Sequence record: MW679410.1
Source: Escherichia phage C6
Reading direction: 5' to 3' (one strand)
DNA: 64,000 bases
Shown here: positions 7,147 to 45,510 of the stretch, piece after piece
Layout of the letters: each line of letters begins with the position of its first letter
Position numbering within the stretch: the first letter of the stretch is position 1
Made by a program: the position numbers and the translations under genes
The notes under the pieces: generated by a model
Seen by the model: only the letters and a program-made list of their open reading frames with translations
What the model was told of the DNA's origin: nothing
The model's database searches: none

Positions 7147-7472
7147 TTTGCCGCCTTAACAATTTTAAGGTCGACGAATTTTTTCTTACGTTGGTTTTTC
7201 ATACGACGGATAGTTTTATCCGAGATTTCACCAGGGGCCCAAGCTTTAGATTCTACACCAAAGGCAGCGACATCGAATTCATCAAGGATATATTGAACCA
7301 GGATTTCACGAATACCGTTCTTACCAATTTTCTGGTCTTTAGAGTGCATGATTGGTAACAGTTCAGCAACCCATTGGTCAAGAACCTGAGGAGTTACAAA
7401 ACCGGTTTTCATCAGTTCGTTTACTTTATCGAAAGCGAAAGAGTTCAGTACGTTTTTAATAGCTTGTGACAT
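7143..7472 (-). CDS. Hypothetical protein
   Basis: Track start is TTG upstream of a promoter; trimmed to MSQAIKNV with SD GAGGAAA. Confidence 0.5.
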   Translation of the reverse strand: MSQAIKNVLNSFAFDKVNELMKTGFVTPQVLDQWVAELLPIMHSKDQKIGKNGIREILVQYILDEFDVAAFGVESKAWAPGEISDKTIRRMKNQRKKKFVDLKIVKAAK

Positions 7473-7511
7473 AATAATTTCCTCAGTTTTAAAGTTATAA
7501 TCCGTAGGACC

Positions 7512-7541
7512 ATTATACTCTGGTCCCAAGAGTTTGTAAAC
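7512..7541 (-). promoter_or_regulatory. T4 early-type sigma70 promoter (-35 GTTTAC, -10 TATAAT)
   Basis: Minus strand GTTTACAAACTCTTGGGACCAGAGTATAAT; 18-nt spacer. Confidence 0.55.
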
Positions 7542-8177: not shown

Positions 8178-8432
8178 TTACCTCAGCAGTTTGTATCCAA
8201 TAAGATTTTTAATGTATTGGACATCTTTGACATCCAAATCTAACTTAATATCTTTCAGGCGTTCGGCCAGAGTAAGAAATGTTACACGTTTCCAATTCTT
8301 AACAGGACAGCAATAAGTTTTAGGGCCGTTAGCGATTTCAATATTCTTATCAGTGATGGTGATAAAAATCAAACGTTCATCATCAAGATTAAGGGTGGCG
8401 ACATTTTTCATTGAGTGTAATTTCAGGCTCAT
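8178..8432 (-). CDS. Hypothetical protein
   Basis: 84 aa ATG ORF. Confidence 0.5.
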   Translation of the reverse strand: MSLKLHSMKNVATLNLDDERLIFITITDKNIEIANGPKTYCCPVKNWKRVTFLTLAERLKDIKLDLDVKDVQYIKNLIGYKLLR

Positions 8433-8611
8433 GATTTAATTTCCTTTGCTACTGAACAAAATAAAGAACGGTCGCACACCATCAATGGGGCATCAGGGTG
8501 AGTCAAAGGTTGATACCATACATCAAGATTTGTTACCTTTGTTACTTGAACAGGGTAGCCATTTACTGAATAATACTGGTCGACTTTAATTTCTTTATCT
8601 TGGATAGTCAT
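8429..8611 (-). CDS. Hypothetical protein
   Basis: 60 aa; SD GAGGAG; directly downstream of early promoter. Confidence 0.5.
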   Translation of the reverse strand: MTIQDKEIKVDQYYSVNGYPVQVTKVTNLDVWYQPLTHPDAPLMVCDRSLFCSVAKEIKS

Positions 8612-8640
8612 AATGTTCTCCTCATGTGTTGATAGGATAG

Positions 8641-8669
8641 ACTATAACACGTGAGGAGAGGAAGTAAAC
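8641..8669 (-). promoter_or_regulatory. T4 early-type promoter with inverted repeat that can pair with the downstream SD
   Basis: Minus strand GTTTAC, 17-nt spacer, TATAGT; CTCCTCACGTGTT in spacer is complementary to AACACATGAGGAG at the SD. Confidence 0.5.
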
Positions 8670-8670
8670 A

Positions 8671-8988
8671 CTAATCTTCAATTAAATCTTGGTCATAGCC
8701 AAGTTCAATCAAAAGTGATTTGAAGGCAGGAATATTTTCTATTTTCTTATTATCGACAAAGATGACAGGATAGCGTATCGCTAAGCTCTTGAAGCCTGCA
8801 CGTTTGGCCAATGATACTATAAGAGGCTTGTCATATACTGCGCCTGACGGCGTCTGGTTAATCACAGGATAGAAAGTATGTGGGATAGAAAGGGAATTTA
8901 GGAGCGATAGAACTGCAATGCACCCTGGACAGCGCATGACTGTCTCAGGGATACCGTAAATCTCAATTTTAGTTAACTTTTGGTCCAC
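8671..8988 (-). CDS. Thioredoxin-fold protein (glutaredoxin/NrdH-like, CPGC motif)
   Basis: 105 aa; IYG...CPGC redox-motif context; lies where T4 has nrdH-type genes. Confidence 0.45.
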   Translation of the reverse strand: MDQKLTKIEIYGIPETVMRCPGCIAVLSLLNSLSIPHTFYPVINQTPSGAVYDKPLIVSLAKRAGFKSLAIRYPVIFVDNKKIENIPAFKSLLIELGYDQDLIED

Positions 8989-9598: not shown

Positions 9599-10072
9599 TC
9601 ATTTAAGCGATTTCCTCAGTTGTTTTTTGAATGAATCCACCATTTGTTTCTTAGTGGCAGATTCATTATAAGTCATTCCGTGTGAAAGCATTTCAGCAAT
9701 CATTTCTTCCTTACCTAACCTGCTGAACTCTTTGGTTTTATCAGGAACGAAATTAGGATGAATATTGTTTTCAGTATAATCAGCTTTCAGATAGACCAGC
9801 AAATTCTCTAACCATTCGAGGTAGTCAACGTTTTGACCTTTAAGACCAGAACGGTTGAACTTATGCTTCATTTGTCCTTCTGCTGCATTGCACAGGTTAC
9901 ATAGTAAACCACGAACCTTACCGGCTTTTGGCCCGTTTAACTCGTGGTCGTGGTCAAGGTGGTTACTTTGAACATCAGGGTTTAATTCACGTTTACAAAT
10001 CAAACACTTACCACATTGTGCATCATAAAGTTTTTGTTTTTCTTCTTTGTATAATTTGCCGGTCAACAACAT
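9599..10072 (-). CDS. 49: Endonuclease VII (Holliday junction resolvase) gp49
   Basis: 157 aa, same length as T4 gp49; near-identical to recalled T4 sequence (MLLTGKLYKEEKQK..NHLDHDHELNGPKAGKVRGLLCNLCNAAEGQMKHKFNRSGLKGQ). Confidence 0.95.
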   Translation of the reverse strand: MLLTGKLYKEEKQKLYDAQCGKCLICKRELNPDVQSNHLDHDHELNGPKAGKVRGLLCNLCNAAEGQMKHKFNRSGLKGQNVDYLEWLENLLVYLKADYTENNIHPNFVPDKTKEFSRLGKEEMIAEMLSHGMTYNESATKKQMVDSFKKQLRKSLK

Positions 10073-15200: not shown

Positions 15201-15725
15201 TTATGCGAGAACCGTCTTTAAACGCTCTTCAAATTTCTGAAGCAGAGCTTGGCGTTCAGCTCGTTGTGATTTGTACTGCTCGATACGACCTGAAGTGAGG
15301 GCGTACTGTTCATTTACTGATTCCCGCATGAATTCAGGAATCTCTTTACAAGCTTTGATTTCGTCAAACTTATCAATAACCGCTTGTTCCTCGGCAATCA
15401 GATTATCGAAATAAGCGATATCAGATTTAACGTTTGCCAGGTCGGATTCGGTAGGCATTAAACGTTTGTTACGTTCAGCTTGATAAGCTTGATTGTTTTC
15501 ACGACTCCAGTAAAGAATACGTTTTTTGTTGGTGTTTTTATAGAGCTCTACAATACCAACTGAATCGATGATAGCAATCCAGTTCCAACGGCTTTTGTAA
15601 ATCTCTCCTCCGGCAACGGTAATCTCATTACCACAAGCAACGTCGTTAAAGAACTTGCTTTGTTTTTCAGATTTGAAATTACCATTATTAAAATTAATCA
15701 GTGAAAAAATATCTTTAGCGTTCAT
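15201..15725 (-). CDS. Hypothetical protein
   Basis: 174 aa; SD GGAGG; early promoter upstream. Confidence 0.6.
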   Translation of the reverse strand: MNAKDIFSLINFNNGNFKSEKQSKFFNDVACGNEITVAGGEIYKSRWNWIAIIDSVGIVELYKNTNKKRILYWSRENNQAYQAERNKRLMPTESDLANVKSDIAYFDNLIAEEQAVIDKFDEIKACKEIPEFMRESVNEQYALTSGRIEQYKSQRAERQALLQKFEERLKTVLA

Positions 15726-15751
15726 GATAACCTCCAGTAGTTGATAGGTCT

Positions 15752-15780
15752 ATAGTATCATTTCTGCCGGAGATGTAAAC
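15752..15780 (-). promoter_or_regulatory. T4 early-type promoter
   Basis: Minus strand GTTTAC, 17-nt spacer, TGATACTAT extended -10. Confidence 0.6.
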
Positions 15781-20924: not shown

Positions 20925-21161
20925 TCACCAGTATTTGTTGATGGTAGAAATTAATTCTTGGACCTGGGCTGTATTCAGTTTACACCCACAACCCTTTAAT
21001 GTGTCTTTAAGGAGCCACGGTTCCTTGAGCTCGTCCTTTTCCAGACGAATTCTGTATCCTCGATAATCGGCAAAGATACTTCGGTCGTCGAATATCTTAA
21101 TCTCAAGGATACGACCGTTGATTTCATATTCTAATGAAACCGTAGTACTTGCAAGTTTCAT
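20925..21161 (-). CDS. Hypothetical protein
   Basis: 78 aa; SD GAGGAAAA; downstream of early promoter. Confidence 0.5.
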   Translation of the reverse strand: MKLASTTVSLEYEINGRILEIKIFDDRSIFADYRGYRIRLEKDELKEPWLLKDTLKGCGCKLNTAQVQELISTINKYW

Positions 21162-21188
21162 ACTGTTTTCCTCATTAGTTGATAGGTC

Positions 21189-21217
21189 TATAGTATCATG
21201 TTCCTAGAGGATGTAAA
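21189..21217 (-). promoter_or_regulatory. T4 early-type promoter
   Basis: Minus strand GTTTAC, 17-nt spacer, TGATACTAT; conserved GATAGGTCTATAGTATCATG block. Confidence 0.6.
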
Positions 21218-21259
21218 CACTAAAAATGAAAAAAGGTCCCACCGAAGTGAGACCTTTGA

Positions 21260-24622: not shown

Positions 24623-25081
24623 TTAAAGATAGATTACTTTAGTGCTTGTTTTACCTTCTAAACGTTTAGAGTTAACAAATGCCATACGGCATTTAAGGGA
24701 ATATCCTTTATCAGGATGTTTACGGTCTACTGTCATACCTAGCCATAAGGTTTTATCGGTAATTTCGAGACGCAATGGACGATACACTTTACCAGGGACA
24801 ATTTCAGATTCTACATCAGGCAGAGGTTCCTGGATTAAGAATTCATGGATTTCTTTAACATGGTTATGGAGTTGCTTGAATAAAGCAAAAACGTATTTTT
24901 CGTCGATTTCACGTTGGATAGCACGGTCCAACAAATGATTAGAGTACTTAATAAAGAAGGCTGGGACTCCGCTCTTAATGGCGGCTTTTTTGATGGACGC
25001 ATTCAGTTCACGGAATTCGGTTTCGAACTGACGACGTAATTTGTTGCGGCGGATGAATACTTCTGAATTAATTTCTGACAT
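24623..25081 (-). CDS. regB: RegB site-specific endoribonuclease
   Basis: 152 aa; strong match to recalled T4 RegB (EVFIRRNKLRR.FE.EFR...HLLDRAIQREIDE.YVF). Confidence 0.9.
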   Translation of the reverse strand: MSEINSEVFIRRNKLRRQFETEFRELNASIKKAAIKSGVPAFFIKYSNHLLDRAIQREIDEKYVFALFKQLHNHVKEIHEFLIQEPLPDVESEIVPGKVYRPLRLEITDKTLWLGMTVDRKHPDKGYSLKCRMAFVNSKRLEGKTSTKVIYL

Positions 25082-25109
25082 TTTGTAATCTCCTGTAGTT
25101 GATAGGTTT

Positions 25110-25138
25110 ATAGTATCATGTCTACAGGAGATGTAAAC
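25110..25138 (-). promoter_or_regulatory. T4 early-type promoter upstream of regB, with spacer/SD inverted repeat
   Basis: Minus strand GTTTAC, 17-nt spacer, TGATACTAT; 9-bp CTCCTGTAG in spacer is the perfect complement of CTACAGGAG at the regB SD. Confidence 0.6.
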
Positions 25139-27144: not shown

Positions 27145-27174
27145 ATTCTATCACGGATTTAATTAAGCGTAAAT
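27145..27174 (-). promoter_or_regulatory. Candidate early promoter
   Basis: Minus strand ATTTAC, 18-nt spacer, TAGAAT. Confidence 0.35.
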
Positions 27175-27579
27175 AGCCTTGCCATAATGTTTGTACCAGG
27201 TAGGACGCTGTGCAATTTTTTCGTCCAAACGGGCCTGAGATATAGCAATAGAAGCTTCGTGTGGAGTATAGTCACCACGGAATTCCTGAGGAATATCACT
27301 AATGTCCTGGACCGTAGTATCCTTGATATTAAAACCACGTTTTAAACATTCCGCTATAAGCTCGATTTGACGTTTACGTAAAAATTCAAGCTTATCATAA
27401 AAGAAAGTAACATGGCCGGTACCAAGGATAAAAGTAGAGCTAATTTTAAAATCACGAACACGTTTACCATTAGCAACATGCTTACGAACTGCACCGAAAA
27501 CACGTGGTAATTCGCGATATTCAGCCATTAAGTGTTGGTCGGCCAATTCAGATACTAAGGTAAGGTTAATACGAGTCAT
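27163..27579 (-). CDS. denV: Endonuclease V (pyrimidine-dimer DNA glycosylase) DenV
   Basis: Start trimmed to MTRINL (138 aa); near-identical to recalled T4 DenV. Confidence 0.95.
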
Positions 27580-27639
27580 TTTAGTGTTCTCCATGTTTGT
27601 GTGAGAACACTATATCACAGCTATTGTAAAAGTAAACTG

Positions 27640-28662: not shown

Positions 28663-29061
28663 TTATTTGTAGGTTTTCATCCAATTCTTGAACAAAGCCG
28701 CGACGTCTTTCTCTTTAACGTTCAGTTTAACGTCCAACATTTTACCACCCGCTGCTCTCGTTTGGCGAATCTTAGCAGTACCGGTTTCACCATTCCACTC
28801 AACATAATACTGTCCAGTGTTCATTGCAATACCGTCACCGTAGTCTTCATTTTTAGAAGTGGTGAAGGCCAGCTTCATAGTCTTAGAGACGCGAGCCTGC
28901 ATGCCTGTCTGCAGAGCGTTACGAACTCGAATAACCTGAGGAGTGGCCTGGGTCAGGTTCTCATTCAGTTCTTCAGTGAACTCTTCAGATTCAAACATAT
29001 CCAAAAGTTCTTTAGATGCAGGAATTACATTCTCTGCGATAAATTCATTATAAGTTTTCAT
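28663..29061 (-). CDS. Additional CTS-bearing internal-protein-like protein
   Basis: 132 aa; N-terminus [11 protein letters not shown]; C-terminus ends ...NWMKTYK, a vestigial CTS start. Confidence 0.6.
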
Positions 29062-29542
29062 ATGCTTTCCAAGTACCTGTTTTAAATGTAGAAATCACGC
29101 GCTTAGCACGATTAGGAGTTTGTCTATACCAACGAGATTGGGCCAGGTTAACTGCCGCATCGTCCCAACGTTTCTGTTGGAGCATACGTAAAGAGTTAGT
29201 GAACCCGGCTACACCTGCTTCACCCATCTGGAAGACCATGTTAATTAAAGCACAACGACGAACTTCGTCCAGCACATCATAAACAGGTTTCAATTTAGGA
29301 TTACGCAGAATAGCTCTACGAGCATTTTCAACCGATCGGTTAAAGAGTTGCTCAGCTTCAGCCATAGTAATACGGCCATTACAAACCCGGCCCATAAGCT
29401 TATCAAGTTCAGCGCGAGCAACATCTTTAGATGGGTTCTTGGTAACCAACTGACCAATCCCAATAGTCCAATAACCTTCGGTGTCTTTATAAAGATTTAA
29501 ATCAAGACCTTCGTCTTGACGTAACATATCAAAAATATCCAT
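29048..29542 (-). CDS. e: Lysozyme (endolysin) gene e
   Basis: 164 aa, same as T4 lysozyme; extensive identity to recalled T4L (IFEMLR.DEGL.L.IYKDTEGY.TIGIG...[32 protein letters not shown]). Confidence 0.97.
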
Positions 29543-29572
29543 AATACCTCCTGAGTATAGGAGGTATTTATA
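29543..29572 (-). promoter_or_regulatory. Gene e hairpin sequestering the SD, with embedded late promoter TATAAATA
   Basis: 10-bp inverted repeat AATACCTCCT/AGGAGGTATT includes the SD; minus-strand TATAAATA overlaps the 5' arm; known T4 gene e arrangement. Confidence 0.7.
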
Positions 29573-31751: not shown

Positions 31752-31788
31752 TTTATTCTCCGTTTCACTCTGTTGTTTTGATAGGTCT

Positions 31789-31817
31789 ATAGTATCATGC
31801 CTATAGACCTTGTAAAC
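31789..31817 (-). promoter_or_regulatory. T4 early-type promoter with 10-bp dyad
   Basis: Minus strand GTTTAC, 17-nt spacer, TACTAT; AGGTCTATAG...CTATAGACCT dyad; 45-bp block identical to the one near 40790. Confidence 0.6.
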
Positions 31818-38217: not shown

Positions 38218-38293
38218 TGGCCGAGACAGTAGGGATCGAACCTACGACCCAGGACTTAGAAGGTCCTTGCTCTTCCTTCTGAGCTATGCCTCG
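38218..38293 (-). tRNA. tRNA-Arg (anticodon UCU)
   Basis: Manual cloverleaf: 7-bp acceptor, GGTTCGATCC T-arm, anticodon loop CTTCTAA, encoded CCA. Confidence 0.75.
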
Positions 38294-38297
38294 TATT

Positions 38298-38372
38298 TGG
38301 CGGACATGCATGGATTCGAACCATGGACCAATTGATTAACAGTCAACTGCTCTGCCACTGAGCTACACATCC
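38298..38372 (-). tRNA. tRNA-Asn (anticodon GUU), putative
   Basis: Manual cloverleaf: T-loop TTCGAAT, anticodon loop CTGTTAA, encoded CCA; acceptor has two G-U pairs. Confidence 0.55.
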
Positions 38373-38376
38373 AAAT

Positions 38377-38450
38377 TGGTGGCCCTGGGTGGAATCGAAC
38401 CACCATCCAGCGATTATGAGTCGCTCGCTTGACCGTCCAGCTACAGGGCC
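38377..38450 (-). tRNA. tRNA-Ile/Met (anticodon CAU)
   Basis: Manual cloverleaf: perfect 7-bp acceptor, T-loop TTCGATT, anticodon loop CTCATAA, encoded CCA; T4 tRNA-Ile also uses CAU. Confidence 0.75.
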
Positions 38451-40752: not shown

Positions 40753-40789
40753 TTTGATTTCCGTTTGGTTAGTTTGTTTTGATAGGTCT

Positions 40790-40818
40790 ATAGTATCATG
40801 CCTATAGACCTTGTAAAC
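40790..40818 (-). promoter_or_regulatory. T4 early-type promoter with 10-bp dyad
   Basis: Identical 45-bp block to the one at 31777-31820. Confidence 0.6.
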
Positions 40819-43603: not shown

Positions 43604-44415
43604 ACTTTCTGAGCTGAGTAACGCTTGCCTTTCGATACAAATTGCTGAAGTGGTAATCCTATTACATTAGCCCAATCAGCAGGTTTTATCTCTACTAAAG
43701 GTCCTTTAATATTTCCAGGGATATAAGCCTTAATCATCACGTCGGCTCCAGCGAATCCTTTTACCTTACTCCAATCGATTTTTAATTTAGTCGAGTTCGT
43801 AATGGTAGGCGTACTCGCGTATTGCTTCAGCAATTCTTCCAGAAATTGTTGGCGTGCTTTAGGCGGGATATAGTGTAAGTTCAGCCCGTACATTAAATTA
43901 TGCTTACCTAACCCAAGATAAATGATTAAAGGATATTTGTCCCAGTATGGTAGGGTATCCTTATGTTTGGCATCATAGATATAAGCATAAAGCTTACCGG
44001 GAGATGGTTTAGATACCTGGTGTCCACGAATTCCTTTCTTTAATGTTTCTGTAAACCATTTAGCTGATTTATTGTTTACAGCGGCGCCTTCGTTAGCAAT
44101 CTTATCACGAATACTCTTTCTAAAACTATTCACCAAAATTAATTGGCGTTCGGCTTTGGTTAATTTATTGCCAGGTTTATTCTGAAGTTTTTCAACCTGT
44201 ACAGCAGTTTTAATTCGACTCGAATATCGAGACATCGCAGATGTAAAGCTAGAATATTTAATGCCTTTATCTTCAGCGAATTTCTTAGCCGAGACACCTT
44301 TAGCCTTAGCTTTAGCGTATTCAACACCTAAAGCTATCCATTGTTGTTCTGAACGGGTAGGCTTGGAACCCTTTGTGGTTTCAGTAGCCTCATTGATGTA
44401 GGAAAATATACTCAT
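43588..44415 (-). CDS. 2: DNA end protector gp2
   Basis: Start trimmed to MSIFSYI (275 aa); position between 3 and 4. Confidence 0.8.
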
Positions 44416-44861
44416 CCTTTCCATCCTAATTTTTTCAGTGAATGTTCGGTAATCAATCTAAAGGTGATACCCATTTTATCTGCTGTAGCTTTAGCTGCTT
44501 TCCACTTATCAGTATTAACAGACCAAGTATAATGTTCGTTGATATATCTCTTTTTAGCAGCTGTAGTCATTTTAACAGGCACCGCAGGAGCATGGGTTTC
44601 TTTAAAAGGTTTGACTTCAAAAAAGAATTGTTGGCCTGTATCAAATTTAACCCAGAAGTCCATAAAATATCGTCTTTTCTTTCCTTCGGCATTGCAAAAG
44701 TATGGGATAACCACCTCTTCTGAATTCCACTGGACTACATTAGGATGGTTGTCAAGCCAACGCATAAACCATGCTTCCCAAGAGGAACGATATTGGATTT
44801 TCTTCCAATCACCTTTATATTTTTGTAAGTTTGTAGGTTTAAATTTCCCTGAGTAAGCCAT
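44412..44861 (-). CDS. 4: Head completion protein gp4
   Basis: 149 aa (T4 gp4 about 150 aa); divergent to gene 53. Confidence 0.8.
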
Positions 44862-44872
44862 AGTTGCCTCCT

Positions 44873-44880
44873 TATAAATA
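44873..44880 (+). promoter_or_regulatory. T4 late promoter TATAAATA for gene 53
   Basis: Exact TATAAATA 28 nt upstream of ATG 44908. Confidence 0.7.
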
Positions 44881-44887
44881 TTAATAT

Positions 44888-44895
44888 TATTTATA
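44888..44895 (-). promoter_or_regulatory. T4 late promoter TATAAATA for genes 4-2-3 (divergent)
   Basis: Plus-strand TATTTATA, i.e. TATAAATA on minus, upstream of gene 4 start at 44861. Confidence 0.6.
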
Positions 44896-44907
44896 CTCGG
44901 AGGCCCT

Positions 44908-45510
44908 ATGCTCTTCTCATTTTTCGATCCTATCGATTACGAATCAAAAACAGTCAAGCCGGATTCGGGCTCATTAACAAATGCCGATGTACTGAGCGTG
45001 CCGATGACTGATATATTTAGAAATTATAAAGAATATTTTGATAAAGTGGCTAAAAATTATACACTAAAGACTTATTATATCAACGGGGCTCCTCGTCCAG
45101 AAGAATTGGCCAATCAACTTTATGGCAACGTCCAATTATATTGGGTTTTATTGATGTGCAATAATATATATGACCCCTATTACGGCTGGATTACAGGTCA
45201 AGAAGTTGCATATCAAGCGGCAATCCAAAGATATTCTACTGCAGGTGGTAATCAAGTTCTTTATCACGTTAATGAAAAGGGTGAGAAATTCTGGAATCTT
45301 GTTAATACTCCAGAAAACCCGTATACTTGGTATGATAAAGGCGATACAGAAAAACGTTATCCTCAATATGAGGGCCCTTTGGCCGCAGTAGATATTTACG
45401 AGGATGCTATTCGTAAAAATGAATATAAGCGCGAAATAAAGATTGTAGACCCTAATGATATTGAGTCCTTTATTTCTGCCCTTATTCGCGAAATGGAGAA
45501 AGCCCTCTAA
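44908..45510 (+). CDS. 53: Baseplate wedge protein gp53
   Basis: 200 aa; position before gene 5; late promoter. Confidence 0.85.
   Translation: MLFSFFDPIDYESKTVKPDSGSLTNADVLSVPMTDIFRNYKEYFDKVAKNYTLKTYYINGAPRPEELANQLYGNVQLYWVLLMCNNIYDPYYGWITGQEVAYQAAIQRYSTAGGNQVLYHVNEKGEKFWNLVNTPENPYTWYDKGDTEKRYPQYEGPLAAVDIYEDAIRKNEYKREIKIVDPNDIESFISALIREMEKAL

Follow-up and report, generated by a model that had tools for sequence, protein, structure and literature searches.

Can an early gene of a T-even phage be translated from every RNA that contains it, or only from the RNA that starts at its own promoter? The question is raised by a short intergenic space of Escherichia phage C6, of which we analyzed a stretch of 64,000 nucleotides (nt; sequence record MW679410.1), referred to below as the window. 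On its minus strand, the open reading frame (ORF) 8429..8611, the homologue of T4 gene 55.6, is preceded by an early-type promoter whose −35/−10 spacer is complementary to the Shine–Dalgarno (SD) sequence of the very same gene. An RNA that arrives from upstream is predicted to fold spacer and SD region into one stable helix, and an RNA that starts at the promoter is predicted to carry only the second half of it. We lean slightly toward the interpretation that this hairpin has been selected because it masks the ribosome site, so that translation would depend on the origin of the transcript.

A Promoter Spacer That Pairs with the Downstream Ribosome Site

A first-pass annotation of this DNA had claimed a second early promoter upstream of ORF 8429..8611, with a spacer that is complementary, apart from one mismatch, to a sequence spanning GAGGAG just before the ATG. 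We found these elements where they had been placed: the promoter reads GTTTAC-N17-TGtTATAGT, and an early-type promoter likewise precedes 55.6 in T4, T2, RB69, and Dhakavirus. Arm 1, CTCCTCACGTGTT (8658..8646, minus strand), and arm 2, AACACATGAGGAG (8630..8618, minus strand), can pair along their whole length except for a C·A mismatch (8651 vs 8625), which makes 12 of 13 positions, or 13 of 14 if the U-A pair 8659/8617 is included. The SD sequence GAGGAG, which includes the RegB core motif GGAG, occupies 8623..8618 and thus lies within arm 2. The element is composed as follows:

8669..8664, minus strand: −35 hexamer GTTTAC of the T4 early-promoter type (from the sequence)
8663..8647, minus strand: promoter spacer TTCCTCTCCTCACGTGT, 17 nt, bearing most of the hairpin 5' arm (from the sequence)
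8649..8641, minus strand: extended −10 element, TGt TATAGT, with the hexamer TATAGT at 8646..8641 (promoter scan and sequence)
8646..8659, minus strand: hairpin 5' arm UCUCCUCACGUGUU, present only in RNA started upstream of the promoter
8631..8645, minus strand: hairpin loop of 15 nt, which includes the predicted start and all but one base of the −10 hexamer
8617..8630, minus strand: hairpin 3' arm AACACAUGAGGAGA, including the SD sequence GAGGAG
8429..8611, minus strand: gp55.6 homologue of 60 amino acids (phrog_2283; ATG at 8611..8609), function unknown

Judged by its sequence, this is a good T4-type early promoter. The promoter scan returned TTTACT, a 16-nt spacer, and TATAGT with TG present. 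A fitting reference is provided by the PeSL cassettes, which are repeated intergenic modules of variable early regions that combine an A+T-rich region, a strong sigma-70-like promoter, a stem-loop, and a ribosome site with ATG (PMC2839356, PMC4122927): relative to their T-even type TTTACW-N17-TAYWAT, the 55.6 promoter has GTTTACT, a 17-nt spacer (counted from GTTTAC), TATAGT as five of the six positions of TAYWAT, and the TG extension, and its upstream sequence ATTTAATTGAAGATTAGT is A+T-rich as in that type. From the usual sigma-70 distance of 6–8 nt past the −10 hexamer we infer a transcription start at 8635..8633, with the A at 8633 as the best candidate; after the −10, the leader reads CTATCCTATCAACACATGAGGAGAACATT and is followed by the ATG at 8611.

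The folding check suggested with the annotation was run and yielded a stable hairpin with a buried ribosome site. The isolated stem-loop has a predicted energy of −21.1 kcal/mol, and the 111-nt context reaches −23.5 kcal/mol (z = −2.1; 10 of 200 shuffles as stable). Read-through RNAs that start at the −35 or 60 or 150 nt upstream all contain the hairpin in their minimum-energy structure, and the six bases of the ribosome site have a pairing probability of 1.0 in every read-through context folded. RNAs starting at 8633–8638 contain no 5' arm, and their minimum free energy amounts to only −3.8 kcal/mol. The stem was not flagged by the intrinsic terminator scan, as it is followed by AACAUUAUGACU with no U-run; an intrinsic (Rho-independent) terminator is ruled out for it by the missing T-run. 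Among the Rfam 15 covariance models, none matched within 8400..8900 at E <= 1, and the matches in the whole window comprise three tRNAs only. The same methods reproduced the experimentally established T4 hairpins at e and 49, as well as the one at I-TevII that is described in reviews, with comparable predictions.

Placement of the Pairing at Promoters and Gene Starts

The duplex between the 55.6 spacer and its own ribosome-site segment is predicted at −18.0 kcal/mol compared to a shuffle mean of −8.1, and none of 2000 composition-preserving spacer shuffles was as good (p <= 0.0005). This behavior extends to the 15 GTTTAC cassettes of the window, in which pairing with the own leader beats that of shuffled spacers (Fisher-combined p = 2e-10), and in which a spacer matched with the leader of another cassette pairs less well than with its own (permutation p = 5e-5; ribosome-site segment alone p = 0.001). 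We also scanned ribosome-site accessibility at the 76 confidently called gene starts of the window in a context of −100..+30. Gene 55.6 ranked first for masking; at 11 of the 76 starts the ribosome site is masked by an upstream partner, and a promoter lies within 80 nt upstream in 8 of these 11 vs 13 of the 65 unmasked starts (Fisher p = 0.001).

Two of the masked starts are late-promoter cases, one being the gene e of the window. This ORF of 164 amino acids (29048..29542, minus strand), named gene e (T4 lysozyme) in the first-pass annotation, has a TATAAATA late promoter directly followed by an ACCUCCU...AGGAGGU hairpin over the ribosome site at 29540..29572 (P paired 0.99), and it served us as an internal positive control for the masking predictions. 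According to the first-pass annotation, the architecture at 55.6 is the same as at regB and gene e. For regB this is borne out by a spacer-to-ribosome-site pairing of ATCTCCTGTAG with CTACAGGAGAT; gene e shares the logic but differs in promoter type and arm position, since its promoter is of the late TATAAATA kind and the 5' arm, located downstream of the late box, is no part of a sigma-70 spacer.

Sister Cassettes in the Window

The minus strand contains 18 GTTTAC-N16-18-TAnnnT sites, most of them intergenic and with a leader ...CTATCAAC... in common. In the masked sister genes that rank just behind 55.6, GTTTAC and TAYTAT are separated by a 17-nt spacer, and a conserved leader, (A/G)ACCTATCAAC, leads on to a ribosome site with which this spacer pairs. 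The cassettes with a masked ribosome site are:

25081..25138, minus strand: regB cassette (regB 24623..25081), spacer ATCTCCTGTAG (25132..25122) with CTACAGGAGAT (25098..25088), 11 perfect pairs over the ribosome site
15725..15780, minus strand: cassette of the nrdC.8 homologue (gene 15201..15725), spacer ATCTCCGGCAG (15774..15764) with CTACTGGAGGT (15740..15730)
21161..21218, minus strand: cassette of a 78-amino-acid ORF (20925..21161), spacer TCCTCTAG (21211..21204) with CTAATGAGGA (21178..21169), 2-nt bulge
27579..27637, minus strand: denV cassette (gene 27163..27579), −10/+1 region TAGTGTTCTC (27611..27602) with GAGAACACTA (27591..27582)

At denV it is accordingly not the spacer that masks the ribosome site but the last part of the −10 hexamer together with the first transcribed bases. 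In a second group of cassettes (40818, 40250, 36967, 36509, 31817, and 7541) the spacer pairs with the +1 region, which encloses the −10 and leaves the ribosome site free. Two members of this group, 40818..40765 and 31817..31764 (minus strand), lie 9 kb apart and are identical over ~45 nt, GTTTAC aaggtctataggcatga TACTAT agacctatcaaaacaa, each with a 10-bp spacer/+1 palindrome; deletions or mini-circles mediated by PeSL have been proposed to arise from direct repeats of this kind.

Counterparts in T4 and Apparent Exchange of Cassettes

In T4 the spacer–leader pairing was tested for positions 1–77000, in which 24 GTTTAC promoters stand next to genes; the RefSeq record of T4 lists no promoters from which mapped starts could be taken. 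Nine of these 24 show pairing at p <= 0.002 (combined p = 4e-13): the ribosome site is clearly masked at regB, denV, nrdC.8, and motB.2, with duplexes of −14 to −22 kcal/mol (shuffle p <= 0.01), and the spacer pairs with the +1 region at ipI, ipII, mobD.2, dmd, and motB. Like the 55.6 element, the four masked T4 cassettes consist of GTTTAC, a spacer with CTCC or CCTC and a gene-specific extension, a −10, the ...CTATCAAC... leader, and a ribosome site paired with the spacer; they differ from it in the sequences of their arms. The genes regB, denV, and nrdC.8 are masked in both T4 and C6 although their arms are non-homologous, and at denV even the 5' arm has moved: in T4 it is the promoter spacer that masks denV (ATCTCCTGTAG / CTACAGGAGA), in the window the −10/+1 region. 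Because the structure is kept at these three genes without the sequence, it is masking itself that appears to have been selected, which we regard as our strongest argument.

Judging from their sequences, genes seem to have swapped whole promoter cassettes. The regB cassette of the window (25081..25138) has a nearly identical counterpart in the denV cassette of T4, and the window cassette 7472..7541 that precedes the 55.2 homologue has one in the T4 motB cassette (aaactcttgggaccagag TATAAT ggtcc). Moreover, Mosigvirus and Marfavirus phages combine the same leader with different spacers, and cassettes of a similar kind are found at further loci and in other genera.

Such mobility brings up a role at the level of DNA: the repeat might influence promoter opening by forming a cruciform or single-strand hairpin, or it might be a site at which cassettes recombine and are shuffled. 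Recombination at PeSL cassettes is documented (PMC2839356, PMC4122927), the exchange of cassettes is evident from pairs such as T4 denV and regB of the window, and several spacer/+1 stems are perfect palindromes with 8-nt loops. The 55.6 hairpin, however, has a loop of 15 nt, by which cruciform extrusion is strongly disfavored, and recombination needs direct rather than inverted repeats. The composition of the stems points in the same direction: the interior non-Watson–Crick positions of the strong promoter stems (>=9 Watson–Crick pairs) are G·U in seven cases and A·C in one, which favors selection on the sense RNA over selection on a DNA or antisense structure. With the loop length and the G·U excess of the sister stems, both a DNA cruciform and an antisense RNA are disfavored, and we deem a DNA-level role highly improbable.

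The 55.6 Junction in Related Phages

The region around the 55.6 element is 90–96% identical to the Dhakavirus phages JS98, IME08, LHE83, and WG01 of the T-even subfamily, from which the homologue of T4 gene 55.6 was named; gp55.6 is present in 729 phage records, T4, T2, and RB69 among them. A sigma-70-type promoter occupies the same position before 55.6 in all four genera examined, with a weaker −35, GTGTAC, in the VR7-type phages.

For Dhakavirus, 54 records reach >=90% identity, and in these the 76-nt element is conserved to >=94.7%; variation of the stem is confined to four adjacent bases of the 5' arm, the 3' arm being invariant. In MN04 the C·A mismatch is replaced by U-A, which results in a perfect 13/13 stem of −26.2 kcal/mol, and in MX01 and VR5 pairing is kept via G·U, U·G, or U-A; in total, pairing tolerates five of the six substitutions found in the 5' arm. 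Taken alone, this set of closely related sequences appears uninformative and proves nothing. In the RB69-type phages (Mosigvirus), an unrelated spacer, ATCCTC(G/A)ATAGAT, pairs with ...ATCTAC...GAGGA (P paired 0.99, shuffle p = 0.003–0.016).

Proposed Mechanism of Transcript-Origin-Dependent Translation

From the computed promoter match, and from a pairing that is placed non-randomly, recurs, and is conserved while its sequence changes, it can be proposed how the origin of a transcript could determine its translation. A polymerase coming from upstream, that is, from the gene 49/55.8/nrdH unit, would copy the spacer first and the SD region ~28 nt later; both would then close into the 14-position hairpin, and GAGGAG would be hidden from the 30S subunit. 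A polymerase starting at the cassette promoter would begin inside the loop (~8633) and produce an RNA with the 3' arm only, leaving the ribosome site free. Consequently, gp55.6 would depend entirely on RNA from its own immediate-early promoter, and longer RNAs that persist after early shut-off would not yield it. As T4 early promoters are shut off 2–3 minutes after infection (PMC3014915), its synthesis would be limited to the immediate-early burst. The next ORF is probably restricted in the same manner by translational coupling, because its start overlaps the 55.6 stop (ATGA at 8432..8429).

The existence of read-through RNA is something we infer from the organization of the region upstream, where the nrdH-like gene is preceded by 55.8-like ORFs and gene 49:

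8671..8988, minus strand: nrdH-like glutaredoxin gene directly upstream of the 59-nt nrdH/55.6 intergenic space (ORF list; annotated nrdH/glutaredoxin in IME08, LHE83)
8680..8710, minus strand: A+U-rich hairpin in the last nrdH codons (fold prediction), with the core 8703..8688 as a weak terminator-like site of 5 bp
9665..9692, minus strand: candidate MotA-type middle promoter, AATGCTTTCA, 12 nt, TATAAT (motif scan), inside the 3' part of gene 49, ~1 kb upstream

The likely sources of read-through are the gene 49/55.8 unit and the candidate MotA-type promoter at 9692, which precedes the 55.8-like ORFs, nrdH, and 55.6 and might act once the early promoters have been switched off; in T4, middle promoters P55.8 have been mapped at the equivalent place (PMC2988021). 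Between gene 49 and 55.6 the terminator scan returned no strong terminator, only the weak 5-bp site at 8703..8688. If read-through RNA is left untranslated, it may be exposed to Rho, and the hairpin would then act as an attenuator or insulator of the transcription unit as well.

The ribosome site also carries a possible target of RegB. Because GGAG followed by AACAUUA matches five of seven positions of the RegB/S1 consensus GGAGRAYARAA (PMC1702504), RegB may, speculatively, cut and inactivate the exposed ribosome site of the short RNA. The same observation could be turned around: the hairpin might serve to hide GGAG from RegB in the polycistronic RNA. The window does encode RegB (24623..25081), and RNA structure protects from RegB cleavage (PMC3014915), but it is hard to see what would be gained by guarding an unusable ribosome site, other than a more stable downstream message. 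Alternatively, the hairpin might couple 55.6 to nrdH if it were opened by the ribosomes that finish nrdH. The nrdH stop codon (TAG at 8673..8671) ends 11 nt before the 5' arm, and the unwinding by a ribosome reaches only ~5–7 nt past the A-site codon, so that a terminating ribosome should not open the stem; from this stop-to-stem gap we judge translational coupling with nrdH unlikely. All in all, shielding from RegB and coupling to nrdH are, even when taken together, a quite improbable explanation of the hairpin.

Evidence Against Masking and Alternative Explanations

A number of observations speak against ribosome-site masking as the selected function or add no weight to it. Firstly, stems of 13 bp with <=1 mismatch and loops of 3–45 nt are found three times in the window at an expectation of 3.05 from dinucleotide shuffles; the inverted repeat is thus not remarkable in itself, and it is its placement that is non-random. 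Secondly, the only mismatch of the 55.6 stem is a C·A, which corresponds to G·U on the antisense strand, so that this locus alone does not discriminate between sense and antisense. Thirdly, in IME08 one G-C pair is lost by a G to A exchange, which weakens the stem, and the seven distinct Dhakavirus variants include no two-sided covariation, the 3' arm being invariant. Fourthly, T4 and T2 show no significant spacer–leader pairing at 55.6 (p = 0.27–0.6), and the VR7-type phages (Gaprivervirus) have a different GC hairpin over the −35, AAAGGGG-TGTACAAG-CCCCTTT, whose loop contains the −35-like GTGTAC. Fifthly, about as many cassettes of the window pair the spacer with +1 as with the ribosome site, so a general function of the hairpins that is not tied to translation is possible. 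Finally, the weak terminator-like hairpin 8703..8688 might already limit read-through.

Masking as a conserved feature of gene 55.6 across the subfamily is ruled out by T4 and T2. The T4 promoter of 55.6 has a terminator-like hairpin before it instead of the pairing, and such a hairpin is located directly after nrdH in T4, T2, and RB69. In the VR7-type phages the GC hairpin replaces the −35/spacer part, and the leader after the −10 stays homologous to the Dhakavirus leader, which marks the nrdH/55.6 cassette as a mosaic. Judging by these arrangements, every lineage has some device at the nrdH/55.6 junction that could separate 55.6 from upstream expression, the device differing by lineage.

Could the 55.6 hairpin be a product of chance, in that a pyrimidine-rich spacer happens to face a purine-rich ribosome site? 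The expected frequency of such stems, the missing covariation among the Dhakavirus orthologues, and the unpaired 55.6 of T4 would all agree with this notion. It is nevertheless very hard to reconcile with the composition-preserving shuffles, none of which was as good, with the repetition of the design at several promoters here and in T4, with the independent version in the RB69-type phages, and with the five of six 5'-arm substitutions that are compatible with pairing. We therefore attach hardly any likelihood to it.

Of greater weight, even if we still consider it unlikely, is a generic PeSL-type stem-loop, i.e., an attenuator or a protective 3' hairpin for the nrdH RNA, whose overlap with the ribosome site would be incidental because the arms lie in the only free sequence of the 59-nt space. 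It would explain the half of the cassettes in which the spacer has the +1 region as its partner and the ribosome site is free, and it would also explain the terminator-like hairpins of T4 and RB69 and the GC hairpin of VR7, which make it seem that some boundary device is conserved at nrdH/55.6. Furthermore, PeSL stem-loops of RB49/phi1 lowered the expression of a downstream lacZ as much as a strong terminator (PMC2839356), the terminator/attenuator activity having been assayed with a reporter for one RB49 PeSL only (PMC2839356). The 55.6 stem, however, has no U-tract behind it, and its 3' arm covers the ribosome site exactly; masking is kept at regB, denV, and nrdC.8 in two genera with different arms, even with the denV 5' arm moved to the −10 region; and masked ribosome sites are enriched beside promoters. 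In part, the generic stem-loop and ribosome-site masking are compatible, as blocked translation together with Rho would resemble attenuation.

Relation to Known Masking Hairpins and PeSL Cassettes

The logic of masking is known from T4 e, soc, 49, and I-TevI, whose ribosome sites are hidden in long transcripts, translatable RNA coming from a promoter within the structure (PMC3014915, PMC2988022). With this type, represented by T4 e, soc, 49, I-TevI, I-TevII, I-TevIII, and segB and by Aeh1 mobE, the 55.6 element shares an SD sequence and/or start codon that is buried in a stable helix of the upstream-started RNA and an internal promoter that is placed such that its own predicted RNA lacks the 5' arm. 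The predicted stabilities are similar to those of the e/49 type, and the gene e copy of the window shows the T4 design. In all described cases of masking hairpins, however, the internal promoter is late (gp55) and the gene is a late gene, as is explicitly stated in the review by Edgell (PMC2988022). The late box TATAAATA that characterizes T4 e, soc, 49, and I-TevI is absent at 55.6, where the promoter is of the early sigma-70 type and no such box was found within 8 kb on the minus strand; because of this missing late promoter we do not class the 55.6 element with the T4 late hairpins. It also differs from them in that the 5' arm is the −35/−10 spacer itself and in that translation would be confined to the immediate-early burst rather than delayed.

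With the PeSL cassettes (Arbiol et al. 2010; Comeau et al. 2014) the 55.6 element has in common the early promoter with its A+T-rich upstream sequence, the repeated intergenic module that ends in a ribosome site and ATG, and the association with gene shuffling through exchange between genes. Their stem-loops have been proposed to end upstream transcription and to mediate gene shuffling (PMC2839356, PMC4122927), and they are classed by five positions relative to the −35/−10, the position in T4/PST being just upstream of the promoter (PMC4122927). It is the A+U-rich hairpin 8710..8680, just upstream of the −35, that matches this T-even position (PMC4122927). The 55.6 stem, by contrast, reaches across the −10 and the start as far as the ribosome site and lacks a U-tract, a geometry that is absent from the PeSL papers. 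Pairing with the ribosome site and translation are not discussed there: the words "translation" and "ribosome" occur zero times in the 2010 paper (PMC2839356). In the literature we found no description of spacer-to-ribosome-site pairing at early promoters of T4 or other phages, which older closed-access work may nonetheless mention.

Consequently, the 55.6 element is best described as belonging to a recurrent class of T-even early-promoter cassettes that combines a masking hairpin and its internal promoter with the PeSL module. What sets it apart is the early promoter together with the use of its spacer as the 5' arm; the masking logic of T4 e, soc, 49, and I-TevI is already known.

Implications for Early Gene Expression

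T4 is the reference system for temporal control in phages, and its known translational masking hairpins have been described only for late genes. Tentatively, and well aware that the balance tips against so broad a statement, we propose that spacer-to-ribosome-site pairing might be a general rule of T-even early cassettes, T4 included. Many early genes (regB, denV, nrdC.8, motB.2, and in some genera 55.6) would then be translatable only from the RNA of their own promoter and every read-through copy would be silenced, which would render the cassettes autonomous and insulated and tie synthesis to the 2–3 minute life of the early promoters; via Rho, this could add to the distinction between immediate-early and delayed-early expression and to the "attenuator" activity of PeSL.

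If this holds true, the −35/−10 spacer would gain a second job at the level of RNA, and it would matter from which promoter a gene is transcribed, not only whether it is transcribed. A simple account would be at hand for nuclease and repair genes of the regB/denV type that are made only in a short early burst, for the shuffling of cassettes between genes without upsetting their neighbors, and for PeSL stem-loops that behave as attenuators. The class is directly testable in T4 with existing genetics, and it would offer a compact design for synthetic operons that unites promoter, insulator, and ribosome site in ~60 nt. For the 55.6 locus alone the consequence is modest and local, given that the function of gp55.6 is unknown; the class, being present in T4, is of greater interest.

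Further Features of the Window

A variant of the late-promoter design is found in the palindromic space 44862..44907 between the divergent genes 44412..44861 (minus strand) and 44908..45510 (plus strand). It contains two TATAAATA late boxes, one per strand (44873 plus, 44895 minus), and a GCCTCC...GGAGGC hairpin that is predicted to mask the ribosome sites of both genes in longer RNAs (P paired 1.0 and 0.83), whereby the complement of one gene's ribosome site acts as 5' arm for the other. The three tRNAs recognized by Rfam (62–70 bits) are encoded by tandem genes at 38221..38450 on the minus strand, and a plus-strand ORF of 46 amino acids that lies over them is probably a spurious gene call.

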